The notes below the pieces were generated by a model. That model searched no databases, was not told the origin of the DNA, and saw nothing but the letters and a program-made list of their open reading frames with translations. From the NCBI GenBank assembly GCA_963804575.1, contig CAWDQY010000004.1, positions 332 through 64,331 of the forward strand: a stretch of 64,000 bases of DNA. Direction: 5' to 3'. Below, piece after piece: positions 18,744-41,412 of this stretch. Each line of letters begins with the position of its first letter. Position 1 is the stretch's first letter. Both the position numbers and the translations under genes were made by a program. This DNA comes from an uncultured Chloroflexia bacterium. GTDB lineage: Bacteria > Chloroflexota > Limnocylindria > Limnocylindrales > CSP1-4.

Positions 18744-20493
18744 GCTCCATCCCAGCGACCCAGTACGCGGTCCAGATCGTCGCCGCCGACAGGACCGTCC
18801 TGAACAGGTCCAAGCCGGTGCCCCCGCTGGGCCCGACGCAGATCCTCTGCAGGTCGAGGCGATCGGCATCTGCTTCACCGACACCAAGCTGCTGCACGCC
18901 TTCGACGGCCCACCCGCGCAAGGGCGAGGTGCGGACCTTCCTGACTCCACAGGAGTTGTCCGGCATCCCCAGCTACGTGCCCGGGCGACAAGCCGACCGT
19001 GCCAGGACACGAAGTCTGTGCCCGCGTGGTCGCCGTGGGCTCGGCGGTGAAGCACCACCAGGTGGGTGACCGCGCCCTCGTCCAGACCGACTATCGCCAC
19101 ATGCTGACGGCATCGTCCAATGCGTCCTTCGGCTACAACTTCGAGGGCGCCTGCAGCAGTACGTGCTGATGGACGAGCGCGTCATCATCGAGCCCGAGAC
19201 CGGCGAGCGCTTCCTCATCCCCGTCAGCGAGGAGCCCAGTGCGTCGGCGGTGGGCCTGCTGGAGCCGTGGGCGTGCGTGGAACGTGCCTACGCGACCGAG
19301 GAGCGCGCCACGCTCAGGCCCGCTGGGCGCCTGCTGGTGGTGGTCGACGCCGGCCACACCATCGACGGGATCGACGCCCTGCTGGCGGCCGCGACCCCGG
19401 CCGAGCTGGTGGCGGTGGTGGCTGACCCCGCCAGCCGCGTGGTGCTCGACACCATCCTCGGCAGTGCCGGGCTGTCCACCAGCTACGCCACCGACATCGC
19501 GGGGCTGACGCCCGGTTCGTTCGACGACATCATCTACTTCGGTGCCGACGCGGAGCGTGTCGAGCAGCTGCAACGCCTGCTCGGCCTCAGGGGCGTCATC
19601 GATGTCGTGCTCGGCGGCGAGCGCCTCGGTCGGCCGGTCGAGGTCGACGTCGGCCGCGTCCACTACGACCTCATCCGCTGGGTCGGCAGCAGCGGCATCT
19701 CTGCCGCCGACGGCTACGGCTGGGTGCCCGCCAGCGGCGAGCTGCGCCCGGGCGAGAAGGTCGGCATCATCGGCGCCGCCGGCCCCATGGGCTTCATGCA
19801 CGTGGTACGTGCGCTCACCGCCGGCGTCGAGGGGGTGGCCGTCACGGCCATCGACATCGATGCGGCGCGCCTGGCGCACCTGGCGAGCGTGGCCGGACCG
19901 TTGGCCGCCGACCGCGGCCTCGCCTTCGAATCGCTCGACAGCCGGGAGGGGCAACCGGTCACGGCGCGTTCACGCGGGTGGGCTGCATGGTGCCGGTCCC
20001 GGCCGTGGCTGCGGGCACGGTGGAGCTGGCAGGGCAAGGCGCCATCATCGACTTCTTCGCCGGCTTCGCCATCGGCACCACGGTGCCGCTGGATCTCGAC
20101 GCCATGCTGGACCGTCACATCTACATCCTCGGCACCAGCGGCTCCATGATCAGCGACATGAAGGCTGTGCTGGGCCGCCTCGAGGCGGGCACCCTGGACA
20201 CCAACATCAGCGTCTACGCCGTCTCGGGCATGCAGGGCGTGGCGGATGCGCTGGAGGCCGTCAAGGCCCGCACCTCTGGCGGCAAGATCGTCATCTACCC
20301 GCAGCTGACGCAGCTGGGCATGATCACGCTCACCGAGATGGACAGCCGCTACCCGTCCGTCGCGGCCGCCATGCACGAAGGTCGCTGGACGCGCGCCGCC
20401 GAGGAGGCACTCATCGCCGCCGCCGGGGAGGACGCCGCCGAGGACGCCGCCGCCGGTGACGCTGGCGCCGAGGGCGGGGGCGCGGTGGCATGA
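18740..20493 (+). pseudogene. Atypical long (about 580 aa) MDR/zinc-type alcohol dehydrogenase-like protein with at least 5 frameshifts
   Basis: The GroES-like part GICFTDTKLLHAF...VPGHEVCARVVAVGSAVKHHQVGD and the Rossmann motif GIIGAAGPMGFMHV are spread over three frames. Shifts near 18852, 18912, 18985, 19150 and 19960, each at a short C or G run. Confidence 0.7.
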
Positions 20494-21293
20494 CCTCCAC
20501 GACGACCGAACCCGCAGGCGGCGCCTTCGCCGGGGAGCGGCAGCGGGAGATCGCCCGCATCGTCGACGAGCAGGGCCGCGCGCGGGTGACCGAGCTGGCT
20601 GAGCGCTTCGGCGTCTCCGCGGTCACCATCCGCAAGGACCTCGAGGCGCTCGCCGAGGCCGATCGCGTCATCCGCACGCACGGTGGCGCCATCGCCGCCC
20701 GCATGCGTCGCGGCGACATCGCCTTCGATGTGCGCGATCGCCTGCAGCGGGAGGAGAAGGCGGCCATCGGGGCACTCGCCGCGGCGCACGTCAGCAACGG
20801 CGAGTCGATCATCCTGGACGCCAGCACGACCGGCCTGTACCTGGCCCGTGAGCTGCTCAAGCGCGAGGCCTGGCATGGGCTCACCGTGGTGACCAACAGC
20901 ATCCATGTCGCCACCGCGCTGGCCGGTCGTCCAGACATCACGGTGCTGCTGATGGGTGGCCGGGTCCGCAGCTCGCTCTCCGTGGTGGGCCAGCTGGGAG
21001 ACGCCGTGCTCGACCGGGTCAACGTGCAGAAGGCGTTCCTGGGCTCGGCCGGCTTCTCGCTCGAGGAGGGCCTGACCGAAGCACGCGAAGAAGAAGCACA
21101 GATCAAGCGCGCGATGGTGGCCTCGGCCCGCGAGGTCTACGCCATCATCGACCACAGCAAATGGGGGCGCGTCGCCTCGGCCACGTTCTGCGAGGTCGGG
21201 GCCCTGACACAGGTCCTCACCGATGCGGCCGCGCCGGCCGCGATGGTGGACGCGCTCCGGGGGATGGGCATCGAGGTGACGCAGCATGGCTGA
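20490..21293 (+). CDS. DeoR/GlpR-family transcriptional regulator
   Basis: N-terminal HTH (RQREIARIVDEQGRARVTELAERFGVSAVTIRKDL) plus a DeoR C-terminal sugar-phosphate sensor domain. ATGA overlap with the upstream gene. Confidence 0.9.
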   Translation: MTSTTTEPAGGAFAGERQREIARIVDEQGRARVTELAERFGVSAVTIRKDLEALAEADRVIRTHGGAIAARMRRGDIAFDVRDRLQREEKAAIGALAAAHVSNGESIILDASTTGLYLARELLKREAWHGLTVVTNSIHVATALAGRPDITVLLMGGRVRSSLSVVGQLGDAVLDRVNVQKAFLGSAGFSLEEGLTEAREEEAQIKRAMVASAREVYAIIDHSKWGRVASATFCEVGALTQVLTDAAAPAAMVDALRGMGIEVTQHG

Positions 21294-22774
21294 TCGGGGA
21301 CTTCGGTACGTGGCACTGGACTACGGCGCCGAAAGCGGACGCACCATCGTCGGCCGCTTCGATGGCGACCAGCTCAGCATCGAGCCGGTGCATCGGTACG
21401 CCAACGTGCCTGTGCGCATGGGCGGCACGCTCTACTGGGACTTCGCCCGCCAGTTCAACGACATCCTCACCGGCCTGGGCAAGGCCGCCGAGGGTGGCCC
21501 GGTGCACTCGGTGTCGGTCGATACCTGGGGCGTGGACTACGGCTTCCTCGATGCGCGCGGCCGGCTCATCGGCAACCCCGTCCACTATCGCGATACGCGC
21601 CACGAGAGCATGCTCGAAGCCGCCTTCGAGACTCGTCCCGCGCGAGGAGATCTACCTCGCCACGGGGATCCAGTTCATGTCCATCAACACGCTCTTCCAG
21701 CTGCTGAGCGAGGTCCGCGCCAACGATCCCATCCTCGAGCAGGCGGACACGCTGCTGATGATGCCGGACATCTTCAACCACTTCCTCTGCGGCGCCGACG
21801 TGGCCGAGTACACCGAAGCCACCACCGGCCAGACGGTGGATCCCTGGACCCACGACTGGGCTCGGCCGCTCTTCGACCGCCTGGGCATCCCCACCCACTT
21901 CCTGCCGCAGATCGTGGAACCGGGCACGGTCCTGGGGCCGCTGCTCGACGAGGTCGCCGGTGCCAGCGGCTGTCGCGACACGCAGGTGGTCGCGGGGGCC
22001 TCGCATGACACCGCCTCGGCCGTGGCGGCCATCCCGCTGGCGGGGAGGTCGACCGCCTACATCTCGTCGGGCACCTGGTCACTGGTGGGACTGGAAGTCG
22101 ACGAGCCCGTCATCGACGAGGCCTCGCTGGCGGCCAACCTCACCAACGAGGGCGGCTATGCCGGCACCATCACGCTGCTGCGCAACGTCATGGGCCTGTG
22201 GCTGGTGCAGCAGAGCCGCAAGGCTCTCTGGCCCGCTGACGACGCCCCCTCGTACGCGGACATCTGCACGCTCGCAGAGGCAGGCACACCCGGCACCGCC
22301 TTCGTCGATCCCGACGATGCGCGCTTCCTGTGGCCCGGCGACATGCCCAGCCGCATCCGCGCCTTCTGCGAGGAAACCGGCCAGCCGGTACCGCTGGAGA
22401 TGCCCACGCTGTGGCGCGTCATCTTCGAGTCGCTGGCCCTGAAGTACGACTGGGTGGTCAACCGGCTGGGCGAGGTGACCGGTCGCGACATCGACCAGAT
22501 CCACATCGTCGGCGGTGGCTCGCAGAACGAGCTGCTGTGCCAGATCACGGCCGACATCAGCGGCCGCGAGGTGGTGGCCGGACCTGTCGAAGCCACGGCC
22601 ATCGGCAACATCGCCATCCAGGCCATCACCGCCGGCGAGCTGCGCGACCTGGCACAGGCACGCGAGCTCATCGCGCGCTCCTTCCCCATGCGGTCGTACC
22701 AGCCGTCGGGTGACTGGTCGGACGCGCGGGGACGGTTCGGCGAGCTGCTCGCGGCGCGTGCCGGCAAGCCCTAG
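21286..22774 (+). pseudogene. FGGY-family sugar kinase (rhamnulokinase-like), frameshift near 21635
   Basis: N-terminus YVALDYGAESGR...SVDTWGVDYGFLD in ORF 21286..22008. The remainder (SSGTWSLVGLE, IHIVGGGSQNELLCQ) is in ORF 21161..22774. Confidence 0.8.
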
Positions 22775-22831
22775 ACTCGGAAGGCAACGAAGCTCCACGT
22801 GGTGGAGCGTGGAGGGGAAGGAACGCACCAG

Positions 22832-23701
22832 ATGAACAAGTTCGGAGTCCATGCGCTCGTGTGGTCAGGCAGCTGGGGTGCCAAGGAGTGCGAGTACGCC
22901 ATCTCCAGCACCAAGGAAGCCGGCTACGACCTCATCGAGCTACCGGCGTTCTCGCCGGCTGAGATGGACATCGGGGCCATCCAGCGGGCGCTCGAGACGC
23001 ACGAAGTGGAGGTGACCTGCTCGCTGGGCCTCGGCTTCGACAACGACATCAACAGCGAGGACGCTGACTGCGTGGCGCGTGGGGAGCAGACGCTCAACGA
23101 GGCGCTCGCGATGGTCCGTGACATCGGCGGCAAGTACCTCGGCGGCGTCATCTTCAGCGCCCTCGGGCCCTACACGAGGATGCCCTCCCAGAAGGCCCGT
23201 GAGAACAGCCAGGCGGTGATCGGTCGGCTGGCCGACACGGCCAAGGCCTCCGGTATCAAGGTCGGGCTGGAGTTCGTGAACCGCTACGAGACCAACCTCT
23301 TGAACACCTCGGCGCAGACGGCCGAGTACATCAGGGAGATCGGCTCGGACAACCTGGTCGTCCACCTCGACTCGTACCACATGAACATCGAGGAGAACAA
23401 CTTCCGCGACCCGGTCTTCGATGCCGGTGACCTGCTGGGCTACGTGCATATCGGCGAGAACCATCGCGGCTACCTGGGCCAGGGACACGTGAACTTCCCC
23501 GAGCTGTTCGGGGCACTGGCGGATGCCGGGTACGACGGTGTCATCACCTTCGAGTCCTTCAGCTCCAAGGTGGTCGATGAGAACCTGACCACCATCCTGC
23601 GCATCTGGCGCAACATGTGGGACAACAGCATGGACCTGGCCGTCCAGGCACGCCGCTACATGGGCGAGGAGATGGCCAAGGCGATCGCCGCCAAGGGCTG
23701 A
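22832..23701 (+). CDS. Ketose 3-epimerase family protein (D-tagatose/D-psicose 3-epimerase-like, xylose-isomerase-like TIM barrel)
   Basis: GLEFVNRYETNLLNT ... VHLDSYHMNIEENNF ... HIGENHRGYLGQG closely parallels the DTE/DPE metal-binding motifs as I recall them (E, D, H, E ligands). Confidence 0.75.
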   Translation: MNKFGVHALVWSGSWGAKECEYAISSTKEAGYDLIELPAFSPAEMDIGAIQRALETHEVEVTCSLGLGFDNDINSEDADCVARGEQTLNEALAMVRDIGGKYLGGVIFSALGPYTRMPSQKARENSQAVIGRLADTAKASGIKVGLEFVNRYETNLLNTSAQTAEYIREIGSDNLVVHLDSYHMNIEENNFRDPVFDAGDLLGYVHIGENHRGYLGQGHVNFPELFGALADAGYDGVITFESFSSKVVDENLTTILRIWRNMWDNSMDLAVQARRYMGEEMAKAIAAKG

Positions 23702-23744
23702 CCGATCGACGCCGTCGGCAGCGCCGACAGCGTCGACGTACCTG

Positions 23745-23956
23745 GGGTTGGCCGCGAGTGCTTGGGTTGGCCGCGTGTGCTCGGGTTGGCCGCGTGTGCT
23801 TGGGTTGGCCGCGTGTGCTGGGTCGCGGCGTGTGCTTGGGTCGGCGGTGTGGGCGCGGGTTGGCAGGCGTGTGCTTGGGTCAGCGGTGCGGTCGCGTGTG
23901 CTTGGGTCAGGCGGTGCGCTGGACCACCCGGTGGTGCTTGGGTCACCCCGTGTGCC
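23745..23956 (+). repeat. Tandem array A: about 10 units of about 19 bp (consensus GGGTTGGCCGCGTGTGCTT), degenerating rightwards
   Basis: The CCGCG core recurs at 23752, 23771, 23790 and 23809, an exact 19-bp spacing. Later units are progressively diverged. Confidence 0.85.
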
Positions 23957-24076
23957 AACTCGACGTGTTCGCGTCGACAGTGGCCGCTTCGGCACACCCG
24001 GTGTTCCAGGCTGACACTTCGGCACGCGCTGCGTCCCAATTCGGCCCGAAGCGGCGACCGCTGGTCGAGTTGGCAC
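23952..24076. other. Nested inverted repeats forming the centre of the array A / array B structure
   Basis: GTGCCAACTCGAC (23952-23964) pairs with GTCGAGTTGGCAC (24064-24076). GCCGCTTCGG (23983-23992) pairs with CCGAAGCGGC (24046-24055). There are also direct repeats of CTTCGGCAC and GGTGTTCCA. Confidence 0.7.
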
Positions 24077-24121
24077 GGGTGGTGTTCCACGGTCAAGCCA
24101 ACGCAGGCGGACATCGCGGTT

Positions 24122-24254
24122 CGGGCCTGCGGCCAGGCCTGGGCAGCCGCGGCGGTCACGGGCACCGCGGCCAGTCCCGGGCACCGCGGCCAGGCCCTGG
24201 CACCGCGGCCAGGTCCAGGGCACCGCGGCCAGTCTGGGCACCGCGGCCAGACCC
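24122..24254 (-). repeat. Tandem array B: about 7 units of 18-20 bp (GGGCACCGCGGCCAGnnnn), the inverted counterpart of array A
   Basis: CCGCGG at 24147, 24165, 24184, 24203, 24223 and 24241. The reverse complement of the unit (GGGACTGGCCGCGGTGCCC) aligns with the array A unit GGGTTGGCCGCGTGTGCTT. Confidence 0.85.
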
Positions 24255-24312
24255 CGGCAGCACGACCTGGACCTGGACACTCGCCTTTGCCGCTGACTGC
24301 CGTGCTCGCGAA

Positions 24313-24342
24313 ACGGCGGGGTGCCTCGTGGCACCCCGCCGT
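24313..24342 (-). terminator. Perfect 13-bp stem / 4-nt loop hairpin downstream of the sugar-binding protein gene
   Basis: ACGGCGGGGTGCC TCGT GGCACCCCGCCGT. On the minus strand it is followed by TTTCG. Confidence 0.6.
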
Positions 24343-24385
24343 CGTTGGTCGCCGGGTAGATGCGGGGGAGCCCCCGCGGCGGTGA

Positions 24386-25504
24386 CTAGAAGTCGAAGTC
24401 GCCGATGTTCTCAGCGTTGAAGACGAACGGGGCGCCCAGCAGCACTTCGCTGCCGTTGACGACCTGCAGCTCACCGAGCCTGCCAGCCATGACGCTGGTG
24501 TCGCCGGGGCTGAACTCGCCGTCCACGATGGCCCGGGTCACGTACACCGCGGCATAGCCGAGGTCCACGGGGTTCCACAGCACGACGGACTGCACGCAGC
24601 CGTCCTCGACATACGGTCGCATCGCGTTCGGGGTCGCAAGACCGATGACGGCGACTTCGCCGCACAGGCCGGCCTGGGTGACGGCGTCGGCAGCCGCCGG
24701 GGTCGCCACGGAGGTCATGCCGAAGATGCCGTCGATGTCCTCACCGTACTTGTTGAGGAGCGTCTGGGCCTGGCTGAAGGACAGCGGGGTGTCTTCCTGG
24801 GCCTCGAGGGTCTCGAGCCAGGTCAGGTTCGGATAGCACTGCGCCGCGTAGGCGGACATCTCGGCGATCCAGCGCGCCTGGTTGGGCGTGGTGAAGGTCG
24901 AGGTGACGATGCCGAAGGAGGCGTCCTCGCCCTGCTCGGCGACGAGGCTGTCGATCATGGTCTTGCCGATGCCGTTGAACTCGGCCTGGTTGACGAACCA
25001 CTCGCGAGCCTCGGGCACGGAGTTGGCGTCGTAGCCCACGACGTGGATGCCGGCCTCGAGGGCCTTGGTCAGCACGGGGCCGATGGCGACGGGATCGTTG
25101 GCGGCGAACAGCACGCCGTCCACGCCCTGCGTGATGTAGTTGTCGATGAAGGTGATCTGCTCATCGATGTTGGCGGCCGTGGGGCCGTCGTTGATGACCT
25201 CGACGTTGCCGAGCTCAGCCGCTGCTTCCTGCGTGCCCTGCGCGGTGGCGTCGAAGTAGCCGATGCCGATGAGCTTGGGGATGTCGACGAGCGTGATGTC
25301 GGCGCCGGCCTCGGCGGTCGGGTTCACGGCGGTCCCGCCGTCATACTCGCCGGCATCGGCGGGAGGCGGAGCCTCGCCACCGGGGCAGGCCAGCGGGTTG
25401 GTCGGCAGCTCGTCGGCGCCGTCCCAGACGTCCTGAGCGGCGACCGCGCTGACCGACCCCAGGGTCAGGGCGAGCGTGGTCAGAAGAACGATTGGCTTTC
25501 GCAT
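24386..25504 (-). CDS. Sugar ABC transporter substrate-binding protein (RhaS/LsrB-like PBP1 family)
   Basis: Signal peptide MRKPIVLLTTLALTLGSVSAVAA and a periplasmic binding fold (VDGVLFAANDP, VVGYDAN). An alternative TTG start is at 25525. Confidence 0.85.
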   Translation of the reverse strand: MRKPIVLLTTLALTLGSVSAVAAQDVWDGADELPTNPLACPGGEAPPPADAGEYDGGTAVNPTAEAGADITLVDIPKLIGIGYFDATAQGTQEAAAELGNVEVINDGPTAANIDEQITFIDNYITQGVDGVLFAANDPVAIGPVLTKALEAGIHVVGYDANSVPEAREWFVNQAEFNGIGKTMIDSLVAEQGEDASFGIVTSTFTTPNQARWIAEMSAYAAQCYPNLTWLETLEAQEDTPLSFSQAQTLLNKYGEDIDGIFGMTSVATPAAADAVTQAGLCGEVAVIGLATPNAMRPYVEDGCVQSVVLWNPVDLGYAAVYVTRAIVDGEFSPGDTSVMAGRLGELQVVNGSEVLLGAPFVFNAENIGDFDF

Positions 25505-25618
25505 CTTGCGGTTGATCTCCTCCAAAGTGATCGAACTGGGTAACGATGGGCGACCCCTCGGGGCCGTCGCACGTCGGTCGTAGCTCGCGACACCTCCTCT
25601 CCTGTGAGTATCGTAGCT

Positions 25619-26647
25619 CTAGCCCTGTCCGGGTAGAAGCCTCTTGAGCCGCTCGGGCGGGTTGGCGATGAAGGTGTTGAGGAGCACGGCCCCGATGAGC
25701 ACGAGGCCCACCACGATGGTGGTGGAGTCACCCTTGGCCCCGGAGAGCGCCAGACCATTCTTCATCAGCTGGATGAGCATGAGGCCCAGGACGGTGCCGA
25801 TGATGGTGCCGCTGCCGCCGAAGATGCTGGTGCCACCGACGACGACGGCGGTGATGGCGGTCAGCTCGAAGCCATTGCCCATGTCGGAGCGAGTCGTGCT
25901 GACACGGGAGACGAAGACCCAGCCGGCCAAGCCGGACATGAAGCCCGAGAGCGTGTAGATGATGAACTTGTTGCGCGCCACGTTCAGGCCGCTGAACCGT
26001 GCGCCGGTCTCGTTGTTGCCGATGGCGTACAGGGACCTGCCGAAGGGCGTCCAGGCAAGGGCGGCGCCGATGCCGATGATGCCGATCACGACCAGGAAGA
26101 GCTGGTTCGGGAACACCGTGGCGGTGCCGAAGAAGCTGAAGTCCTTCTGGCCCAGGATGTAGAACCACTCGGGGTAGCCGCGCACGGAGCGCGCCTGCGC
26201 GATGCCCTCGGCCAGGCCGCGGAAGAGGGCCAGCGTGGCCAGCGTGGTGATCAGTGGCGGCAGGCCCACGCGGATGATGAAGAAGGCATTGAAGGCGCCG
26301 CAAGCGGTCGCGATGACCAGGGCGACGACGATGGCGACTTCCAGCGGCAGGCCCCAGTTGTGCCAGGCCACCCCCAGCATGATGGCCGTGAGCCCGACGA
26401 TGGAACCGACCGACAGGTCGATGCCGCCGGTGATGATGATCAGCGTCATGGGCAGCGCGATGAGCGCGATCTCGGTCGCCAGCCGGCCCTGGTTGAGCAG
26501 GTTCTCCGGCGTCAGGAACACGTTCGACTGGAACGACATCAGGATGACGCCAGCGATGAGGATGAAGAAGAGGATGGTCTCCTGGCGCAGCAGGATGGCC
26601 TGCAGTCGCGAACCGGAGCGGTCAGCCACCGACGTTGCGGTCGTCAT
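25619..26647 (-). CDS. Sugar ABC transporter permease (RbsC/LsrD-like)
   Basis: 342 aa, about 10 TM helices, with a branched-chain/ribose-type permease signature (GGIDLSVGSIVG). Confidence 0.9.
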   Translation of the reverse strand: MTTATSVADRSGSRLQAILLRQETILFFILIAGVILMSFQSNVFLTPENLLNQGRLATEIALIALPMTLIIITGGIDLSVGSIVGLTAIMLGVAWHNWGLPLEVAIVVALVIATACGAFNAFFIIRVGLPPLITTLATLALFRGLAEGIAQARSVRGYPEWFYILGQKDFSFFGTATVFPNQLFLVVIGIIGIGAALAWTPFGRSLYAIGNNETGARFSGLNVARNKFIIYTLSGFMSGLAGWVFVSRVSTTRSDMGNGFELTAITAVVVGGTSIFGGSGTIIGTVLGLMLIQLMKNGLALSGAKGDSTTIVVGLVLIGAVLLNTFIANPPERLKRLLPGQG

Positions 26648-26659
26648 GTCAGCCTCCCC

Positions 26660-27667
26660 CTACATCCGTTCCTGGCGACGTCGGCGAACGACATCGGCGA
26701 GCACCGTGACGAGGATGAGCACGCCCAGGATGGCCTTGAGCCAGAAGGGCGAGATGTCCACGAAGACGAGCGCGGCCCCGATGGTGCGAATGAGGATGGT
26801 CGCCAGCGTGGAGCCGATGACGGTCCCGATGCCACCGAGGATGGACACGCCACCGACCACCGCGGCGGTGATGACCTGCAGCTCGAGGCCCGGCGTGACG
26901 ACGGTCTGGAGCGTGTTGTACTGCGTCGCGAACATCACCGCCGCGATGCCGTAGAACAGCCCGGCGATGGTGAAGGTCACCATCAGCTGGCGGCGCGTGT
27001 CGATGCCGGAGAGCCGGGCAGCCTCGGCGTTGCCGCCGATGGCGTACTGCGAGCGCCCCGTGCGGCTCCAACGCATCCAGGCAAAGGCCACGATCGTCAG
27101 CGCGATCATGATCCAGACCGGCACCGGGAGGCCGAGGATGTCCTGCTGCGCGATGCTGTAGCCATCGGGCAGCGCGCTGATGGTACTGCCACCGGCGACG
27201 AGGATGAGCCCGCCCTTGAGGATGCTGAACGTTCCCAGCGTGACCACGATGGCGGGGATCTTCAGGTAGGCCACGAAGAAGCCGTTGATGGCGCTGATCA
27301 GCATGCCGCCGAAGAGCGGCGCGATCCAGGCCGCCGCGAGCACGATCGGCGTCGGCACGTCGGCGGCGCTCAGCTGCTCCGCGAGCGAGCCCGACAGTGC
27401 CACCAGCACGCCGATGGCGGCCCCGACGCTGATGTCGATGTTGCCGGTGATGATGATCATCGAGATGCCGATGGCCGCCACCGCGATGTAGGCATTGGCG
27501 TTGAAGACGTCGGTGAGGTTCTGCTCGCTGACGAAGCGCGGGTTGTAGAGCCCGACGCCGATGATGAGCAGCATCAACAGCAGCAGCAGGATGCCTTCCT
27601 GCGAACCGAACAGGCGCCTGGCGTTGGCCAGGTAGCGGTTTCCCTGCGTGCCGGTCGCGGCGGTCAC
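26660..27667 (-). CDS. Sugar ABC transporter permease (RbsC/LsrC-like)
   Basis: 335 aa, GNIDISVGAAIG motif, multi-TM. A 4-nt overlap with the ATPase gene. Confidence 0.9.
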   Translation of the reverse strand: MTAATGTQGNRYLANARRLFGSQEGILLLLLMLLIIGVGLYNPRFVSEQNLTDVFNANAYIAVAAIGISMIIITGNIDISVGAAIGVLVALSGSLAEQLSAADVPTPIVLAAAWIAPLFGGMLISAINGFFVAYLKIPAIVVTLGTFSILKGGLILVAGGSTISALPDGYSIAQQDILGLPVPVWIMIALTIVAFAWMRWSRTGRSQYAIGGNAEAARLSGIDTRRQLMVTFTIAGLFYGIAAVMFATQYNTLQTVVTPGLELQVITAAVVGGVSILGGIGTVIGSTLATILIRTIGAALVFVDISPFWLKAILGVLILVTVLADVVRRRRQERM

Positions 27668-29214
27668 GCCGGAACCCCCGATGCTGTCGAGCCGGGGTCA
27701 CCGGCGGCGGTGCTTTGCTGGTCGCTCATCATCGCCGCGCCGACGTTCTCCTGGGTGGCTTCGGCGCGGCTGAACTCGGCCACCAGGCGGCTGTTGCGCA
27801 TGACCAGGATGCGGTCACTCATGCCCAGCACCTCGGGCAACTCGCTGGAGATCATGAGGATGCCCAGGCCTTGTTGCGCCAGCTCGCTGAGCAGACGGTG
27901 GATCTCCGCCTTGGCTCCGACGTCCACGCCACGCGTGGGCTCGTCGACGATGAGCATCTTCGGCTTGCTGGCCAGCCACTTGCCCACCACGACCTTCTGC
28001 TGGTTGCCGCCGGAGAGCTTGTTGACGACCTGCTCACCGCTGGTGGCGATGATGTTGAGCTGCTCGATGAGCTGCTCGCCCGACTTGCGTTCGTTGCGCT
28101 TGATCACGATGCCGAAGCGGGTGAAGGTGTCGAGGACGGCCATCGAGAGGTTCTCGCGGATGCGCATCTCGCGCACCAACCCCTGCGTGCCGCGGTCCTC
28201 CGGCACGTAGGCGATGCCGAGCTTCATGGCCTGCGCCGGTGACTTGATGTTGACCTTCTGGCCCTCGACGAGGACGTCGCCCGAGTCCGGCTTGAGGATG
28301 CCGAAGATGACCTGCGCCGTCTCGCTGCGGCCGGAGCCGACCAGCCCGGCCATGCCCACGATCTCCCCGCTGCGCACGGTGAAGCTGACGTCCCTGGTCT
28401 GCGGATGGCGGTTGAGGCCTCTCGCCTCGAGCACCGGCTCGCCGACCTCGGTGGGCAGCTTGGGGAACAGGTCGGTGATGGTGCGGCCGACCATCATGCG
28501 GATGAGGTCGTTCTCGTCGGTCTCCGAGACGGGCTTGGAGTCCACCAGCCGGCCGTCGCGCAGCACGGTCACCTTGTCGGCCAACTGGAAGACCTCGACG
28601 AGGCGATGGCTGATGTAGATGATCGCGACACCGCGTTCCCTGAGCAGACGCACGATCCCGAAGAGCTTGGCCACGTCGGATTCGGTGAGGGCGGCGGTGG
28701 GCTCATCCATGATCAGCACCTTGGCGTCGAGCGAGAGCGCCTTGGCGATCTCGACACGCTGGCGGTTGCCCACGTTCAGCGACCCGACCTTGCGCCGAAC
28801 GTCCATGTCGTGGATGTTGAGCGACTCCAGGATCTCCGTCGCACGCCGGTTCATCTCACCCCAGTCGATGACCTGCGTGGGGCCGGCCTTCCGCATCGGC
28901 GCGTGACCCATGAAGATGTTCTCGGCCACGGTCAGCTCCGGGTAGAGGCTGAGCTCCTGGTACATCGTGGCGATGCCGTGGTCCTGCGCTTCGTGCGGGC
29001 TGCGGAACCGCACCAGCTCGCCAGCCATGTGGATGCTGCCGCTGTCGGCCGGATGCACACCGGAGATGACCTTGATGAGCGTCGATTTGCCGGCGCCGTT
29101 CTCCCCCACCAGGGCGTGGACCTCTCCGGCGTCGGTGCTGAAATCGACCTCCTCCAGTGCTTTCACACCGGGGAACGACTTGGAGATGTTGGTCAGCTCG
29201 AGCAGCGCGGCCAT
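27664..29214 (-). CDS. Sugar ABC transporter ATP-binding protein with duplicated ATPase domains (RbsA/LsrA/RhaT-like)
   Basis: Two nucleotide-binding domains: GENGAGKST with DEPTAAL, and LSGGNQQKVVVGKWL with DEPTRGVD. Confidence 0.92.
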   Translation of the reverse strand: MAALLELTNISKSFPGVKALEEVDFSTDAGEVHALVGENGAGKSTLIKVISGVHPADSGSIHMAGELVRFRSPHEAQDHGIATMYQELSLYPELTVAENIFMGHAPMRKAGPTQVIDWGEMNRRATEILESLNIHDMDVRRKVGSLNVGNRQRVEIAKALSLDAKVLIMDEPTAALTESDVAKLFGIVRLLRERGVAIIYISHRLVEVFQLADKVTVLRDGRLVDSKPVSETDENDLIRMMVGRTITDLFPKLPTEVGEPVLEARGLNRHPQTRDVSFTVRSGEIVGMAGLVGSGRSETAQVIFGILKPDSGDVLVEGQKVNIKSPAQAMKLGIAYVPEDRGTQGLVREMRIRENLSMAVLDTFTRFGIVIKRNERKSGEQLIEQLNIIATSGEQVVNKLSGGNQQKVVVGKWLASKPKMLIVDEPTRGVDVGAKAEIHRLLSELAQQGLGILMISSELPEVLGMSDRILVMRNSRLVAEFSRAEATQENVGAAMMSDQQSTAAGDPGSTASGVPA

Positions 29215-29416
29215 ACGTTTCTCGGTCCTACTCCTTGGTCAACAGCGCGTCGAGGCCCGACCGACGTTCCGAGGACGGCGGCGAAGGCTCCCGTGACCGC
29301 TAACCATACCCAATCTCCGCGGCCGAGGGCATTCGTTTGCACAGCGCCGTCAGCGGCCTGTCGCTGGCCGGCGTGTCGTGGGTCGAGCGCCTGGCGCTGC
29401 GGACAGGTGTCCGCGT

Positions 29417-29474
29417 CCGCGGTCGGGCGCCTGTTCCGCGGTCAGGCGCCTGTTACCGCGCTCAGGTGCTCCGG
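29417..29474 (+). repeat. Three tandem 19-20-bp units starting with CCGCGG (array C), preceded by a 16-bp palindrome GCGGACAGGTGTCCGC (29398-29413)
   Basis: Units CCGCGGTCGGGCGCCTGTT, CCGCGGTCAGGCGCCTGTTA and CCGCGCTCAGGTGCTCCGG. They lie upstream of the ABC operon and overlap the stop of the MFS gene. Confidence 0.7.
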
Positions 29475-30811
29475 ACAGCCGCCGGCGTGAGGCGCCAGTC
29501 GGCCCGGCGGATGGCGAGGATCGCGACTGACCCGACGACGGCCAGCGCGAGCGCCGCGATGAGCATGGACGAGCGCACCCCGAAGAGGTCGGCCAGCCAG
29601 CCCGAAAGCACGGCACCGAACAGGCTTGACCCCTGGAAGGTCATCACCCAGATGCCCATGACACGACCGCGCAGCACGTCGGGCGTGGCGGAGTGCACCG
29701 AGACGAGGGCGTTCTGCGCCAGCGAGATCTGCGCCGCCCCGAGCAGGAAGGCCAGCACGAAGACGACCTCGGTCGAACGCGCCAGGCCGATACCCGCGAC
29801 CAGCAGCGCCATGGCCATCACGCTGGCACCGAGCCAGGCGCGCCGGTCGCCGTGGGCGAAGGTGGTCACCAGCAAGGCCGCCGTCAGCGCCCCCGCGCCG
29901 GAGGCCCCCAGGAAGGCGCCGAAGCCGTCGGCACCAAGGCCCATCTCGTCCTGCACGTAGATGGGAGCGAGGGTGGTGAAGGTGGACATGCCCAGCATGG
30001 CGGCGGCCCAGATGAGCACCAGCGAGAGCCAGACCACCGGCTCGTGCAGCACGAAGGATGCGCCGGCTCGAAGGTCTGACAGGACCGAATGGGAGCTGTC
30101 GGCCCGCTGCCTGCCCGGCTCCCGATAGCGATCCATCCACAGGAAGGAGGCCGACACCACCAGCGAGGCCAGGGCGGCGAAGACGAAGGGACTGGCCGCC
30201 CCGATGGTGGCGACCATGACACCCGCCAACACCGGTCCCAGCAGGCGTGTCGAGTTCCAGGCCGTGGCGTGCAGCGAAGCCGCGCTCGAGATGTCCCGCA
30301 TCGGCACCATCTCGGTCATGAAGGCCTGCCGCACCGGCACCTCCACCGCGATCAGCAGGCCGAAGCCGAAGGACGCGGCAGCGAGCATGGGCAGTGTCTG
30401 CGATCCGCTGAGGATGAGCAGGAAGATGACGGCCGAAAGGGCGGACGCGAACAGCTGCGAAACGATCAGCACCTTCCGCCGTTCGACGCGATCGGCCAGC
30501 ACGCCGCCCAGCGGCCCCACGAAGAAGGTGGGCAGGAAGAAGAAGCCGGTGACGATGCCGACCTGCGCCGCCGTGGCGCCGAGCTCCACCGCCAGCCAGG
30601 GGATGGCCACCAGCGGCATCCACATGGCGAGGCCGCGGAAGATCATGCCGGCGAAGTAGATGCGGAAGCCGGGGTGGCGCAGGGCACGAAAGCCGCGCAG
30701 GCGGCCACGCTCGGCGCGACCGGCCGGCGGTTGGTCAGCCTGCGGCTGCTCCACTGACCCGGTCGCGTCCGTCAGCGCCGGTTCGGCTGGAGTGGCGGGC
30801 GGGTTCGTCAT
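29462..30811 (-). CDS. MFS transporter (MFS_3/EntS-like)
   Basis: 449 aa, 12 predicted TM helices, and a GVLADRVERRKVL loop motif between TM2 and TM3. Confidence 0.85.
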   Translation of the reverse strand: MTNPPATPAEPALTDATGSVEQPQADQPPAGRAERGRLRGFRALRHPGFRIYFAGMIFRGLAMWMPLVAIPWLAVELGATAAQVGIVTGFFFLPTFFVGPLGGVLADRVERRKVLIVSQLFASALSAVIFLLILSGSQTLPMLAAASFGFGLLIAVEVPVRQAFMTEMVPMRDISSAASLHATAWNSTRLLGPVLAGVMVATIGAASPFVFAALASLVVSASFLWMDRYREPGRQRADSSHSVLSDLRAGASFVLHEPVVWLSLVLIWAAAMLGMSTFTTLAPIYVQDEMGLGADGFGAFLGASGAGALTAALLVTTFAHGDRRAWLGASVMAMALLVAGIGLARSTEVVFVLAFLLGAAQISLAQNALVSVHSATPDVLRGRVMGIWVMTFQGSSLFGAVLSGWLADLFGVRSSMLIAALALAVVGSVAILAIRRADWRLTPAAVRST

Positions 30812-35236: not shown

Positions 35237-36460
35237 TCAGGCGCCCTGGCCGACCCTCGTGGCGGCCGCGAGGGCAGCGTCCACGTCGGCAAGCAGATCG
35301 GCGGCGTCCTCCAGGCCGGCAGAGATGCGAACCAGGCCGGGCGAGATGCCGGCGGCTCGCAGCTGCGCCTCGTCGAGCTGTCGGTGCGTGGCGCTGGGCG
35401 GATGGACCGCGTAGGTCGTGACGCTGCCGAGCGTGGCCGTCACCGGCGGGATGGAGAGCCCGTTGATGAAGGCTGCGGCGGCATCACGCGAGGCCAGCTC
35501 GAACGCCAGCATGCCGCCCCCGGAGCGCAGCTCGCGCGCGGCGATGTCCGCCTGCGGATGGCTGGCAAGGCCGGGGTAGGCGACCTGGCGCACGCCGGGT
35601 GCGCGCTCGAGGCAGGTCGCCAGGGCCAGGGCGGTCTGGCTGTGCCGATCCATGCGCACGTGCAGGGTCTGCATGCCGCGCAGGACGAGGAAGGCGGAGA
35701 AGGCCGCCGCGATGCCGCCGGTATCGATGGCCACGTCCCGCACGGCACGGATGCGCTCGGCCGTGCCAGCGACCACGCCGGCGATGACGTCGGAGTGGCC
35801 ACCCAGCCACTTGGTCGCCGACTCGACCACCATGTCGACGCCGAGCTCCAGGGGACGGCAGAGGTAGGGCGAGGCGAAGGTGTTGTCCACCACCACCACG
35901 GCGCCGTGCCGATGCCCCAGCTCCGCCAGGCGTGCCAGGTCGGCCACGACGATGGTCGGGTTGGAAATGGTCTCGGTGTAGAGCAGGCGCGTTGGCGCCG
36001 TAGCGAGCTCCCGTTCCACGGCACCCAGGTCGACCGGATCCACGAAGACGACCTCTACGCCGAGACGTGCCAGCACCCGCTCCATCAGCGCACGGGTGCT
36101 GCCATAGACGGCCCGAGTGCAAACGATGCGGTCGCCCGCCCGCAGCAGCGACACCAGCGCGGCATGGACCGCGCCCATGCCGGAGCCGAACGCGAAGCCT
36201 GCCTCGGCGCCGTGCATCTCGGCGAAGGCGGCTGCCAAGGCGTCGGCGGTGGGGTTCTCGATGCGGGCGTACGTGTAGCCCTGCCGCTCGAAGCCGATCA
36301 GCCCAGCGTAGTCATCGACGTCCCGAGCGTGGAAGGTGGCCGTCTGGTAGATGGGCACCGAGGCGGGAACCTGCTCGACGCGCGGCGGACGCGTGGCGGC
36401 CCTGATGGCGCGGGTGCCGAAGCCGTACTGCTCGTCAGCGGACATGGCCTGACTGTACAC
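35237..36460 (-). CDS. Cys/Met-metabolism PLP-dependent enzyme (cystathionine gamma-synthase / methionine gamma-lyase family)
   Basis: YTRIENPT, DNTFASPYLCRPLELGVDMVVESATKWLGGHSDV (PLP lysine motif) and ISAGLED. Confidence 0.88.
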   Translation of the reverse strand: MYSQAMSADEQYGFGTRAIRAATRPPRVEQVPASVPIYQTATFHARDVDDYAGLIGFERQGYTYARIENPTADALAAAFAEMHGAEAGFAFGSGMGAVHAALVSLLRAGDRIVCTRAVYGSTRALMERVLARLGVEVVFVDPVDLGAVERELATAPTRLLYTETISNPTIVVADLARLAELGHRHGAVVVVDNTFASPYLCRPLELGVDMVVESATKWLGGHSDVIAGVVAGTAERIRAVRDVAIDTGGIAAAFSAFLVLRGMQTLHVRMDRHSQTALALATCLERAPGVRQVAYPGLASHPQADIAARELRSGGGMLAFELASRDAAAAFINGLSIPPVTATLGSVTTYAVHPPSATHRQLDEAQLRAAGISPGLVRISAGLEDAADLLADVDAALAAATRVGQGA

Positions 36461-36888
36461 GCCAGGGCCGGCGAGGCCGATAGCGCGTGCGCCGGTCGCG
36501 GGGGCGTTGCGCCCACCGCGTCAGCGCAGCGGCCGCGGTGGCTGGTCGTCCGGCTCGATGGGAAGCGCGATCCAGGGCCGGTCGCCGCTGCTGCGAATCT
36601 CGTCACTGCGACTTCCGGGGCTGCTTCCGGGGCTGCTTCCGGGGCTGCTTCCGCTGCCACGCCCGAGGTCTGCGGCCGGGCGCTGCGGCGGAGCACCATC
36701 GGCGTGCGAGCCTCCGCTCGGCGGCCTCGTCGAAGATGGCTCGGTCCGCGTCAGCCAAGGCTGATCGGCTGCGCCCGCCGGGCTGGGGAGGTCGGGAGCA
36801 TCCACGGCGGTCCGCATCCGCGTGGGTGGTTCAGGTGGCTCACCGGTAGGTCGGGAGTCGGGACGGGAGCGAGGTTGTGAAGGCGGCG

Positions 36889-38385
36889 TCACCTCGCTCG
36901 ACCACGGAGCGGGACCCGGTTCGCCCGGCTCCACCGGGATGGTCGAGCGGTGGCGCGGCGGCGGCCCGGCGGCCGCGGCGGTGCCTCGTTGAGGGGGTGG
37001 TCGCCCGGGTCGCCATACGGCACGCGTGCACCATCGCCAGCCGCGGTATCGTCCCAGGGCACGGGATCACCGCCGGTGCGAACGTCTTCGGCCGGATCGA
37101 GCTGCACCAGGTCGTGGGTGGCGGAGTCGATGTCGGTCGCGATGCGCTCGGTGCGCGTCTGGTAGCCCACGATGCGGTTCTTGCCGCGACGCTTGGCCTC
37201 GTACATGGCCACGTCGGCCGCCGACACCAGCTGCTCGATGGTGCTGCCGTCATCGGGATAGACCACCAGCCCCACCGAGATGGAGGAGCGCACGTTGCGC
37301 GAGGCCGCGTGCAGCGTCAGCGCCTCGATATCGCGACGCAGCTTCTCCGCGACCACGTAGCCGCCAGCCGCATCCGTCTCCGGCAGCAGCACCACGAACT
37401 CGTCGCCGCCGTAGCGTGCGGCCGCATCGGTGAAGCGGACGGTACGGCGGACGACGTCGGCGATGGCCTTGAGCAGCCGATCGCCCCACTGGTGTCCGAA
37501 GGTGTCATTGACGGGCTTGAGGTCATCCAGGTCGAGCATGAGCATGGTGAAGCCGCGACCCATGCGGTCCGAGCGGCGGAGCTCCTGCTCCATGGTGGTG
37601 AAGAAGAAGGAGCGGTTGTACAGGCCGGTGAGGGCGTCGAAGCGGGAGGCGCGCAGGGCCTCGTCGCGCGCGTGGCGCTGTGACCGGGCGGCCGCGGTCG
37701 CGATGTCGGCGAGCAGGATGAGCGAGACCGCGTTGATGCCCACCCATGCCAGCGCCACTGGTTCGAGCGGACCCGCGACGATGGCGTCCAGCATGCCCAC
37801 GAGCGCGATGGTGAGGGCACCCACGAGCGCGACCGCGATCGGCGCGCGCCCTTCCGTGGAGAGAGCGGTCCCGGCCACCACCAGGTAGAAGCCGACCAGG
37901 AAGGGACTGCCGGCCCCACCGGTCAGCGCCATGAGCAGGCCCAGGAACGCGATGGCGCCGATGCCTTCGAGCGGGCGACGCCAGCGGCCCAGCGCCGCCG
38001 GCGGCACCATGTCCATGAACAGGACCACCAGCAGCGTGCCCGCCGCCAGCAGCGTGAAGATGGCCGGCTCGTTGTCCGGCCAGGCACCCGTGAGCGCCAC
38101 CACCACGCCCACGGAGGCAAGGAAGAGGAACGCCACCACGCGTGCGACCTGGCGGGTGCTGGTGGTGGTGATGAAGGCGAAGCTGCCGCGATACCCGGCT
38201 GCTGCAGGCGCGGCGTCCTGGGTGTCATCGTCATCGTGCTCTCGCCCTGCCGCGTGCGCGGGGTCAGCAGAGGGTCGGCGGCCCATGGGGCGCGTGGCGA
38301 ACGCCGTCGCGTAGGCCACCGTCACGGCCACGGCGGCGATGACGATGAGCCCGACGGCGAGCAGGATGATCTGGTCTGCGGACAC
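36889..38385 (-). CDS. Membrane-anchored diguanylate cyclase (GGDEF domain); the C-terminal end is uncertain
   Basis: About 6 N-terminal TM helices, then DALTGLYNRSFF, a RYGGDEFVVLL active-site motif and YEAKRRGKNR. A Pro-rich tail continues in another frame down to about 36521. Confidence 0.85.
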   Translation of the reverse strand: MSADQIILLAVGLIVIAAVAVTVAYATAFATRPMGRRPSADPAHAAGREHDDDDTQDAAPAAAGYRGSFAFITTTSTRQVARVVAFLFLASVGVVVALTGAWPDNEPAIFTLLAAGTLLVVLFMDMVPPAALGRWRRPLEGIGAIAFLGLLMALTGGAGSPFLVGFYLVVAGTALSTEGRAPIAVALVGALTIALVGMLDAIVAGPLEPVALAWVGINAVSLILLADIATAAARSQRHARDEALRASRFDALTGLYNRSFFFTTMEQELRRSDRMGRGFTMLMLDLDDLKPVNDTFGHQWGDRLLKAIADVVRRTVRFTDAAARYGGDEFVVLLPETDAAGGYVVAEKLRRDIEALTLHAASRNVRSSISVGLVVYPDDGSTIEQLVSAADVAMYEAKRRGKNRIVGYQTRTERIATDIDSATHDLVQLDPAEDVRTGGDPVPWDDTAAGDGARVPYGDPGDHPLNEAPPRPPGRRRATARPSRWSRANRVPLRGRAR

Positions 38386-38552
38386 GCACTACCCCAATAC
38401 CCGCGATCGCGGGTGCGTCAGTGGTGAAGCAGGCCGGGCCACCACAAGTACTCCCTTCACGCTGGGACGATGGTACTGCCCTCGCGTGCCTCACCGCCCC
38501 CCGCCGTGACTGCTAGTGTGGACCGCAGGCAACGTCATGCGATGAGGAAGAC

Positions 38553-40499: not shown

Positions 40500-40574
40500 T
40501 GGTCGGGGTGGCGGGGATCGAACCCGCGACCTCATGCTCCCAAAGCATGTGCGCTACCGCTGCGCTACACCCCG
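40500..40574 (-). tRNA. tRNA-Pro (anticodon UGG), CCA encoded
   Basis: Manual fold: acceptor CGGGGTG/CACCCCG, anticodon stem CATGC/GCATG with loop TTTGGGA, T-arm GCGGG TTCGATC CCCGC, then A-CCA. Confidence 0.95.
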
Positions 40575-40709
40575 ACGAGTCCGTGCCTTGATAGGGTACA
40601 CAGCGAGACCGCAGGCGGTAGCGGAGGGTCTACAGCGCTCCCCGAGGATCAATTGGTGCCTGCACCTCGTCGGCAACTCACGAGCCCGGGCTGCACCGCC
40701 CTGCGGGTG

Positions 40710-41006
40710 CTATCTGCTGCGGAGCCAGCGCTCCAGATCAGCGCGATCCACGATTCCGAGCACCAGGACCACGCGGTCGCTGTCGATGACGTCATACATC
40801 ACACGGTGGTCGCCGACCCGCAGACGATGGAACGCATCGTGTGTCCCACGGATGGTCTTGACCGACTTGCCTGGTACGCGTCCGGGACGACCGACGTCGT
40901 GCGCGAGTCGAGCGAGGGTGTTCCGAAGGCGGTCCCGGTCTGCGTCATCGAGCTTCTGGAATTGCCGTGCGGCAGAACGGGAGAGCCGGACCTCGTAGGC
41001 GCTCAG
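40710..41006 (-). CDS. RelE/ParE-family toxin with no canonical start codon in frame (possible CTG at 41006)
   Basis: Hand translation: (L)SAYEVRLSRSAARQFQKLDDADRDRLRNTLARLAHDVGRPGRVPGKSVKTIRGTHDAFHRLRVGDHRVMYDVIDSDRVVLVLGIVDRADLERWLRSR. The RLRVGDHRVMY motif is typical of RelE/ParE. It overlaps the antitoxin stop by 4 nt and is absent from the ORF track. Confidence 0.6.
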   Translation of the reverse strand: MSAYEVRLSRSAARQFQKLDDADRDRLRNTLARLAHDVGRPGRVPGKSVKTIRGTHDAFHRLRVGDHRVMYDVIDSDRVVLVLGIVDRADLERWLRSR

Positions 41007-41239
41007 TCGAGATCCTCCAGACTGACCGTGCGCCCCTTGGCATAGTCGACGCGGGCAAGCCGACGCTGGCGGACATACTCATCGGCATTGGCCAACACGA
41101 GATCTTCGGCTTCGTCGACCGGCAGCAGGACCGCCGCGGGTCGGCCGCGCTTGGTGACGACATAGGCAGACCCACCCTCGACCTTGTCGATGACCGATGA
41201 GGCTGTCGCCTTCAGCTCCTTGATACCGATCTCCGCCAT
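41003..41239 (-). CDS. Phd/YefM-family antitoxin
   Basis: MAEIGIKELKATASSVIDKVEGGSAYVVTKRGRPAAVLLPVDE is classic Phd/YefM. The ORF track starts at 41251, but the ATG at 41239 has a better upstream AGGGA. Confidence 0.85.
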   Translation of the reverse strand: MAEIGIKELKATASSVIDKVEGGSAYVVTKRGRPAAVLLPVDEAEDLVLANADEYVRQRRLARVDYAKGRTVSLEDLD

Positions 41240-41254
41240 GCCATCCCTCATCTC

Positions 41255-41282
41255 GTCACTTGGTAGTCACGTAGGTGGTCAC
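41255..41282. promoter_or_regulatory. Three GTCAC direct repeats at 11-12-bp spacing upstream of the phd-relE module (candidate operator/promoter)
   Basis: GTCAC at 41255, 41266 and 41278, followed by a locally AT-richer stretch (TTTAGCACGTGTACTTACACATC). Confidence 0.45.
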
Positions 41283-41412
41283 TTTAGCACGTGTACTTAC
41301 ACATCGTGGGGATCGCGAGGTATGGCCTTGGCGTCGCCCGCCAGCAGGCCCAGACGCCAGTCATGCCTCTGAGTGGCTCAACCAGGCACACAAGGGCACG
41401 TGTCGCTTGCTG

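Follow-up and report, generated by a model that had tools for sequence, protein, structure and literature searches.

Two oppositely oriented 19-bp tandem arrays around a weakly palindromic spacer between convergent operons of an uncultured Chloroflexota bacterium

Introduction

What are two tandem repeat arrays doing between operons that converge on each other, and how did they come to be there? The question was raised by a gap at 23702-24385 of a 64,000-nucleotide stretch of contig CAWDQY010000004.1 from an uncultured Chloroflexia bacterium (the whole stretch is called the window below), in which two arrays of 19-bp units, array A and array B, lie in opposite orientation on the two sides of a palindromic core. 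An initial annotation had described this locus as a foldback with tandem-repeat arms and had offered three roles for it, namely a protein-binding array, a structured RNA or transcription barrier, and a foldback-type mobile element. The findings in this study suggested another reading, to which we assign a probability of about 0.55: a non-coding double minisatellite of recent origin, restricted to this lineage, grew in place around an older spacer. We class the locus as an intergenic minisatellite joined to a growing quasi-palindrome, and it is probably a repeat patch without a dedicated function. For the regulation of the sugar cluster it is of no importance, being unconserved and placed between operons that each end in a terminator-like hairpin of their own; what makes it of value is the snapshot that it gives of intergenic DNA evolution in high-GC bacteria. 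At this one locus, four related lineages built different arrays of ~19- to 29-bp units flanking the same spacer, and one of them made a 500-bp near-palindrome.

Structure of the arrays and the core

Tandem Repeats Finder (TRF) placed array A at 23745-23880 (period 19, 7.2 copies, 82% matches, score 172), with a consensus, GGGTTGGCCGCGTGTGCTT, identical to the unit of the initial annotation, and array B at 24129-24259 (period 19, 6.9 copies, 80% matches, score 160). Array A, on the + strand, could be divided into ten GGGT-anchored units of 19, 19, 19, 18, 18, 19, 20, 27, 36, and 27 bp. The earlier count of about ten units therefore stood, but the exact 19-bp phase claimed for their CCGCG core was found only at 23752, 23771, 23790, and 23809, in the four outer units (23745-23819; 19, 19, 19, and 18 bp). 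These outer units were the most uniform and the only near-perfect copies of GGGTTGGCCGCGTGTGCTT; the six inner units (23820-23966; 18-36 bp), as judged from the unit list and from alignments with the relative L322 described below, were degenerate and graded into the core. Array A was almost devoid of A (AT skew -0.6). Array B was assigned to the - strand and consisted of about 7 units reading GGCACCGCGGCCAGnnnn on the + strand (reverse complement TGGCCGCGGTGCCCGGGAC), with six good units at 24142-24255 (19, 19, 19, 20, 18, and 19 bp) and degenerate units on either side. Its CCGCGG hexamers began at 24147, 24165, 24184, 24203, 24223, and 24241, a spacing of 18-20 bp.

The motif TGGCCGCGKKKGC, allowing at most one mismatch, occurred 17 times in the window against 3.4 expected, and 9 of the 17 occurrences fell in arrays A and B, on opposite strands. 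CCGCGG itself was not over-represented in the window, with 83 sites against about 110 expected from composition, and the units of both arrays carried only 6-bp palindromes (CCGCGG and CCCGGG). Units abutted head to tail in both arrays, with start-to-start distances of 18-20 bp and no spacers, in agreement with the earlier statement that the locus is not a clustered regularly interspaced short palindromic repeat (CRISPR) array.

Aligned as inverted arms, the two sides matched at 169 of 236 aligned positions. The array A unit and the reverse-complemented array B unit carried TGGCCGCG, GTGC, and GGG in the same order and agreed at 15 of 19 positions, with one compensating indel pair (2 gaps). The claim that the reverse complement of array B aligns with the array A unit was thus borne out, but with modest significance (p about 0.015-0.05). 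We consider it likely, although not proven, from the unit sequences that array B is an inverted copy of the unit of array A through common descent.

Between the arrays lay a central, weakly palindromic spacer of ~170 bp (23925-24095), delimited by its inverted and direct repeats and by alignment with relatives. Two perfect nested inverted repeats were found at the positions given earlier, one of 13 bp (23952-23964 and 24064-24076) and one of 10 bp (23983-23992 and 24046-24055), along with three ~28-bp direct repeats. Extrusion of a DNA cruciform was dropped on general grounds, the longest perfect arms being 13 bp long and 99 bp apart.

As a single strand, the region was predicted to fold into one long imperfect hairpin, which agrees with the foldback of the initial annotation. 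The folding check that it had called for, run on both strands, gave the 684-nt gap a much more stable fold than its dinucleotide shuffles (z -5.4 for DNA, -9.0 for RNA of the + strand, and -6.8 for RNA of the - strand), although these scores overstate the significance because dinucleotide shuffling destroys the arrays. Predicted folding energies of the gap RNA were -429 kcal/mol for the + strand and -374 kcal/mol for the - strand. The differences between the arms comprised 19 T:C against 2 C:T, and as these become G:U pairs on the + strand, their excess accounts for the lower folding energy of that strand. As evidence for an RNA function, this bias was dropped, since the ratio of 19:2 reflects about three differences between the consensus units, multiplied by amplification, and is not significant. 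The core alone gave a fold z of -3.0 in the window and of +0.9 and -1.6 in relatives. A conserved core structure was likewise rejected because the cores of the relatives fold no better than shuffles, although RNAalifold draws a hairpin.

Position between two gene-end hairpins

The gap measured 684 bp, one less than the 685 bp given earlier, and was convergent as claimed, lying between an epimerase gene of the xylose-isomerase-like TIM barrel type (22799-23701, + strand) and a sugar-binding-protein (SBP) gene with a Peripla_BP_4 domain (24386-25525, - strand), both assigned by Pfam. Products of the neighboring genes, also by Pfam, were DeoR, an FGGY kinase, the epimerase, and an ATP-binding cassette (ABC) transporter. 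By its flanking proteins, the window belongs to uncultured Chloroflexota, among metagenome-assembled genomes (MAGs) labelled Limnocylindrales, Chloroflexia, or Anaerolineae.

Nothing coding-like was found in the gap, as the initial annotation had also held, because the G+C content of its open reading frames (ORFs) was flat across the three codon positions (0.67-0.75), unlike that of the flanking genes (about 0.6/0.4/0.9). No protein homologue was found for the translation of the ORF at 23762-24385, which spans the arrays, and further copies of the locus could therefore not be found through mis-called genes. A scan of the gap against promoter and terminator consensus sequences yielded neither a sigma-70-like promoter nor a T-tract terminator. 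Its G+C content was 0.68-0.77 throughout, with no AT-rich segment. Rfam covariance models gave no match to the gap at the gathering threshold; the best matches below it (E 0.28-3.6, with scores far under the cut-offs) were noise at a permissive threshold.

Each of the two genes had a hairpin of its own beside its stop codon. On the epimerase side, a terminator-like hairpin with a 14-bp stem and a 3-nt loop (23706-23736, + strand; 93% complementary) began 5 bp past the stop codon, was paired in all folds, and formed the left edge of the repeat patch. On the other side, the terminator-like hairpin of the SBP gene (24313-24342, - strand) had a perfect 13-bp stem, ACGGCGGGGTGCC/GGCACCCCGCCGT, and was the sole part of the gap kept in all relatives carrying this SBP gene (L005, L006, L009, L016, L017, L020, L322, L324, L325, and L329, where L numbers denote the loci compared). 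Neither hairpin was followed by a T-tract. A small G+C hairpin, GCGGGG..CCCCGC (24362-24377, - strand), seen in the sequence and in the folds, lay between the SBP stop codon and its terminator and was also present in relatives.

The arrays and the core thus sat between two gene-end hairpins and are likely beyond the 3' ends of both transcripts. If an intrinsic terminator is defined as a G+C-rich hairpin placed right behind a stop codon, in the classical form with a U-tract, the arrays themselves are not intrinsic terminators. At the outer edge of array B, TRF and the sequence gave a micro-repeat of 2.5 copies of GACCTG (24264-24278), and ACCTGG at 23740-23745 recurred at 24265-24270 as a weak 6-bp flanking direct repeat; where edges are loosely defined, chance alone will produce a match of this length fairly often.

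The locus in related genomes

The comparison that carried the interpretation was with L322, the closest relative, which was found by looking up the exact permease sequence; the same kind of look-up gave no record for the epimerase or for two start variants of the SBP. L322 was 96.6% identical to the window at the nucleotide level over 5 kb of the neighboring ABC operon. Past its SBP terminator, it carried a homologue of the core (about 75% identity), flanked proximally by a 20-bp x2 repeat and distally by 2-3 units (CTGACCCAGGCCCGGCGCGC). Nothing stood in the place of array B, and the place of array A was taken by the 2-3 degenerate A-like units. The inner units of array A aligned with these distal units (CTGACCCAGGC...), which argues that array A grew in place from pre-existing repeats.

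Other relatives carried different arrays around the same core. In L325 and L326, whose SBP is 93% identical, a 19-bp array of ~7 units (GTGGCCGGGGCTGCGTTGA) was followed by the core and then by a 21-bp array of ~6 units; both arrays differed in sequence from arrays A and B and were not complementary to each other (fold z +0.5 and +1.45). In L329 (SBP 94%), a ~29-bp x4 array preceded a core that was recognized by inspection. The array units of L325 and L329 lacked CCGCGG. L324 and L004 (SBP 96%) had neither core nor arrays, and no such array element was present at the locus in these two or in L005, L006, L009, and L016-L020. As the arrays are missing or replaced in close relatives, they are young, lineage-specific expansions. 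The initial annotation had itself named absence or variation of the region among near-identical strains with no phenotype as a finding that would weaken its interpretation, and the functional readings are weakened by these differences among near relatives.

An alignment of the core among the window, L322, and L325 had a mean column identity of 70%. With about 70-75% identity against 96.6% in the neighboring genes, the core may be under weak constraint only, and its 13-bp stem was perfect in the window alone.

Convergent pairing of the epimerase and SBP genes was found in seven species-level relatives, with gaps of 90-700 bp whose content was unrelated except for the terminator. Small arrays of 20-bp (L005) and 17-bp (L020) units adjoined the SBP terminator. 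Compared with L322, L325, and L330-L336, the gap also coincided with a synteny junction. Relatives on the SBP side were 96-99% identical, but a GFO/MR_MLE gene lay across the gap in L322 and L325; the nearest relatives on the epimerase side reached only 91-92% amino acid identity and continued with a URO-D gene. Contigs of relatives from short-read metagenomes (L323, L327, L328, and L326) ended 5, 13, 51, and 247 bp past the SBP stop codon, which fits assembly breaks at a repeat-rich gap. An element of ~200 bp occupied the orthologous gap in L005 (5006-5209), L006 (~4910-5111), and L009 (5141-~5340), bounded by the inverted repeats CCCACATAGAGCGAAC and GTTCGCTCTATGTGGG, and L017 had a similar inverted-repeat pair, GGAATGGGCGAAC and GTTCGCCCATTCC. 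These are similar to miniature inverted-repeat transposable elements (MITEs) and do not occur in the window.

Proposed origin of the double array

We propose that an older, weakly palindromic spacer of ~170 bp lay just beyond the terminator of the ABC operon, bordered by a few ~20-bp direct repeats. In this lineage, the distal repeats would have expanded in place into array A, probably as strands slipped or realigned out of register in the course of replication or repair. An inverted, related unit would have appeared across the core and expanded into array B, most likely by intrastrand template switching over the core hairpin, through which one flank was copied onto the other and the palindrome was lengthened. 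Such a patch could have been tolerated between the terminator hairpins of the convergent operons, where no promoter or reading frame was disturbed. Any read-through transcript would be expected to form one long, imperfect hairpin, whose effect would at most be to strengthen termination.

When templates are switched between the arms of an imperfect inverted repeat, the arms are reported to become homogenized and expanded (PMC13100816). Together with quasipalindrome mutagenesis, that process resembles the one proposed here in that one arm can be copied onto the other, perfecting and lengthening the palindrome. It has been described for short repeats in yeast promoters and E. coli reporters and is not known for arms made of tandem arrays; its extension to the present locus is our own proposal.

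Similar arrays in the window and in other genomes

Two further arrays were found in the window. Array C (19 bp x2.6, TCCGCGGTCAGGCGCCTGT; 29416-29466) adjoined a hairpin at 29398-29415 and lay directly downstream of a major facilitator superfamily (MFS) transporter gene (29462-30811, - strand), and its units copied the last bases of the gene, including the stop codon. At the same site, L322 had a 13-bp x2 repeat (CGCCTSAGCGGGG) instead, which may reflect the same process elsewhere in this genome. Array D (20 bp x3.8, CGCCGGCGTGTCGTCCGCGG; 63722-63807, within 61916-64000) had CCGCGG in every unit and was surrounded by about 2 kb without clear coding signal, in which four long ORFs were tested and gave no Pfam match.

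Species-representative genomes were scanned for GGCCGCG phased four times at ~19 bp, a pattern that fixes the period in advance. At least 119 loci with 19-bp arrays (L081-L199) were obtained from Actinomycetota, Chloroflexota, Myxococcota, Pseudomonadota, and other phyla, nearly all of high G+C content and with a different unit at nearly every locus. Gene orientation around the arrays was determined with a simple gene caller based on G+C at the third codon position. Among the matches listed, 52 arrays could be classified: 27 lay between convergent, 20 between tandem, and 5 between divergent genes. Convergent pairs made up 20.6% of all adjacent gene pairs in the same loci, giving an enrichment of p = 6e-7. 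Unselected arrays in 2.4 Mb of fetched loci, a small and partly biased sample, had no clear peak at 19 bp; given this and the fixed period of the scan, we do not claim a preference for 19 bp. The growth of arrays at many unrelated high-GC loci may nevertheless be a general process.

Individual loci from the scan resembled the window in different respects. In L195 (6100-6262), the last codons of a gene together with TGA (ACGCGGCCCCGGCATCCTG, 19 bp) were repeated about 8.6 times downstream of that gene. In L091 (3458-3695; Pseudonocardia kongjuensis), a 19-bp x7 array, 44 bp of other sequence, and an inverted, related 20-bp x3 array came immediately behind a stop codon, so that the foldback-of-arrays architecture of the window has a second example in another phylum.

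Copies of the locus itself were not found. The window had no second copy of the A or B unit or of the core, two core motifs had zero matches in species-representative genomes, and the plasmid, phage, and viral-contig collections gave no match to the arrays or the core. The core pattern of array B retrieved from species-representative genomes only a coding 18-bp repeat and an intergenic 19-bp x3 array of Nonomuraea rhodomycinica (L200, ~4159-4215; GGGCACCGCGGCCAGGCAG), which agreed with the unit of array B at 15 of 19 bases, probably by chance or convergence. Nothing relevant on 19-bp intergenic arrays came out of a literature search covering Actinobacteria and Chloroflexota.

Alternative explanations

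Several observations weigh against growth in place by slippage and inverted copying. The link between the two arrays is modest, as the score of the A unit against the reverse complement of the B unit was reached by 44 of 3000 composition shuffles and by 4 of 78 inverted comparisons among the units of other arrays, mostly from unrelated loci; array B could have arisen independently, which would make the foldback partly a coincidence. Both arrays kept the 19-bp period despite compensating +1/-1 indels between units, and this hints at a length constraint beyond plain slippage. CCGCGG recurred in arrays B, C, and D, arrays B and C were alike (z 3.4), and array D had an exact 13-mer, GCCGGCGTGTCGT, in common with the flank of array C (29367-29379); these similarities may indicate that certain sequences are preferred or that the arrays belong to a dispersed family. 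One Acidimicrobiales MAG held three dispersed copies of an element (L113, 5100-5304; L116, 3910-4037; L117, 7180-7313) composed of (TGGCCGCGTTTGGTGAACY)n, a loop of ~30 nt, and one inverted copy (CCAAGTTCACCGAACGCGGTCA), that is, a hairpin with one arm amplified 3-7 times. In a metagenome scan at periods of 18-20 bp, coding 18-bp repeats dominated the matches listed, so other copies of the A and B units may have been missed. The relatives bearing the core numbered only four (L322, L325, L326, and L329).

Some of these points would suit a non-autonomous foldback or MITE-like mobile element, inserted between the terminators as one unit of ~520 bp, with the arrays as its serial transposase-binding ends. 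Its arms are inverted and built of subrepeats, the convergent gap is permissive and holds a different element bounded by terminal inverted repeats in L005, L006, and L009, the Acidimicrobiales element combines a hairpin with a 19-bp array in dispersed copies, the ACCTGG repeat flanks 23746-24264, and the locus coincides with the synteny junction. We nonetheless consider such an insertion improbable. No second copy was found in any of the collections searched, the ACCTGG repeat is not beyond chance, no transposase was among the neighboring genes tested by Pfam (20490-23701 and 24386-30811), and the collinearity of inner array A with the ancestral units of L322 argues for growth in place; moreover, the relatives keep the core while the flanks vary, whereas MITE families keep their ends. 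A functional structured RNA or bidirectional insulator, whose read-through transcripts would fold into an imperfect duplex of ~200 bp that halts transcription or serves as an RNase III substrate and so keeps the convergent operons from interfering, is also unlikely. The very stable predicted fold, better on the + than on the - strand, the T:C excess of the arms with its G:U pairs, the position between convergent genes, and the short palindromes in the units of many such arrays would suit that role. However, it would be redundant, as both genes have hairpins of their own and the arrays come only after these, the arm bias is amplified from a few unit differences, the relatives lack complementary arrays and have cores that are not significantly structured, and neither an Rfam family nor a promoter-like site was found.

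Binding of a protein to the 19-bp units, either by DeoR or by a CCGCGG-recognizing protein or methyltransferase acting cooperatively as on iterons or a centromere, appeared very improbable. The regular spacing of palindromic CCGCGG in array B, its presence in arrays C and D, and the retention of the period despite indels would suit such a protein, and the iterons of plasmids F and P1 are also 19 bp. Against it, the units are specific to each lineage and lack CCGCGG in L325 and L329, some array-bearing relatives have no DeoR cluster beside the locus, the arrays are found at 3' ends and not at promoters, CCGCGG is below expectation in the window, no rep or par gene was among the Pfam-tested genes, and AT-rich segments are missing from the gap. 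Also unlikely is a process, active and possibly driven by an enzyme, that generates repeats beside stable 3'-end hairpins and prefers ~19-21-bp units, with products comparable to the tandem repeats of Borg elements. At least four related lineages gained new arrays at the two positions independently of each other, the arrays of L005 and L020 adjoin the same terminator, periods cluster at 17-21 bp in this clade, and 19-bp arrays with unrelated units (the 119 or more scan loci) are enriched at convergent 3' ends; the ~20-nt intergenic repeats of Borgs are likewise local, flanked by partial units, and missing in close relatives (PMC9879509). The scan fixed its period at ~19 and cannot demonstrate a preference for it, however, and the 2.4-Mb sample had no clear peak there. 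The units of L329 (~29 bp) and of L322 at the array C position (13 bp) lie outside the range, no candidate enzyme was identified, and the data are also accounted for by ordinary slippage in convergent gaps under relaxed selection. In its boldest form, which we put forward only as a tentative and rather unlikely idea, the 3'-end hairpins of this Chloroflexota lineage, and perhaps of high-GC bacteria generally, would be sites of an undescribed process that makes ~19-21-bp arrays from local sequence, possibly with inverted copies across the hairpin. The present locus would then be an extreme outcome of this mutational or enzymatic mechanism. This specific mechanism, if true, would explain a widespread class of 3'-end tandem arrays and some synteny breaks.

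Comparison with known repeat systems

The double minisatellite that we favor shares its main properties with variable number tandem repeats (VNTRs) such as the mycobacterial interspersed repetitive units (MIRUs). Like them, the arrays are head-to-tail, non-coding, and intergenic, with units within the 10-100-bp range (period 19, with 7.2 and 6.9 copies and flat codon-position G+C), and their copy number or presence varies between close relatives, as in L322, L325, and L329. Bacterial minisatellites are thought to grow by slippage. MIRUs are 40-100 bp long, belong to one dispersed family of common sequence, and are often found inside operons; the units described here, by comparison, are 19 bp long and locus-specific and form two inverted arrays around a palindromic core.

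Among described repeats, those of Borgs are the closest parallel to intergenic arrays of ~20-nt units that arise locally and vary from one close relative to the next. Borg tandem repeats are intergenic units of ~20 nt of local origin, with partial-unit flanks, fast-evolving and missing in close relatives; the non-coding units are mostly not multiples of three in length, and the origin of the repeats was left unexplained (PMC9879509). Degenerate flanking units were present here too. However, Borg repeats are perfect, A-rich, and carried on archaeal giant linear elements, whereas the present arrays are 80-82% matched, G+C-rich, and located on a bacterial chromosome, and they are therefore not of the Borg type.

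Repetitive extragenic palindromic (REP) sequences and bacterial interspersed mosaic elements (BIMEs) of enterobacteria and the TRIT palindrome of mycobacteria occupy 3'-end or convergent gaps, form hairpins in transcripts, and are dispersed in tens to hundreds of copies, with units that are themselves palindromes of 20-40 bp; REP and BIME families also come with a RAYT transposase. The locus shares with them the convergent 3'-end gap; it differs in that its units have only 6-bp palindromes and that no dispersed copy was found in the window or in species-representative genomes. Foldback transposons and MITEs have in common with it long inverted arms of short tandem subrepeats around a central segment, although the similarity between the units of its two arms is only modestly above chance. 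It departs from them in lacking other copies in the window, species-representative genomes, viral contigs, plasmids, and phages, in having no convincing target-site duplication or clean empty site beyond the 6-bp ACCTGG (relatives keep the core with other flanks), in conserving its core and not its ends, and in its growth in place. The iterons of F and P1 plasmids are direct repeats in two clusters, and the 19-bp period and the two clusters recur here; a rep gene among the tested neighbors, an AT-rich unwinding element, and a plasmid context or match do not.

Other features of the window

Two more tandem repeats were noted in the window. A 36-bp x3.4 repeat (42289-42410; 90% matches) overlapped a predicted - strand open frame (41910-43979), and a perfect 12-bp x3.5 repeat (CTTCCGGGGCTG; 36612-36653) lay between the open frames 35237-36520 and 36889-38388. 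Two tRNA genes were present on the - strand, at 4556-4629 and 40503-40574. The latter is followed by about 1.4 kb without clear coding signal (40575-41909) and could mark an integration site.

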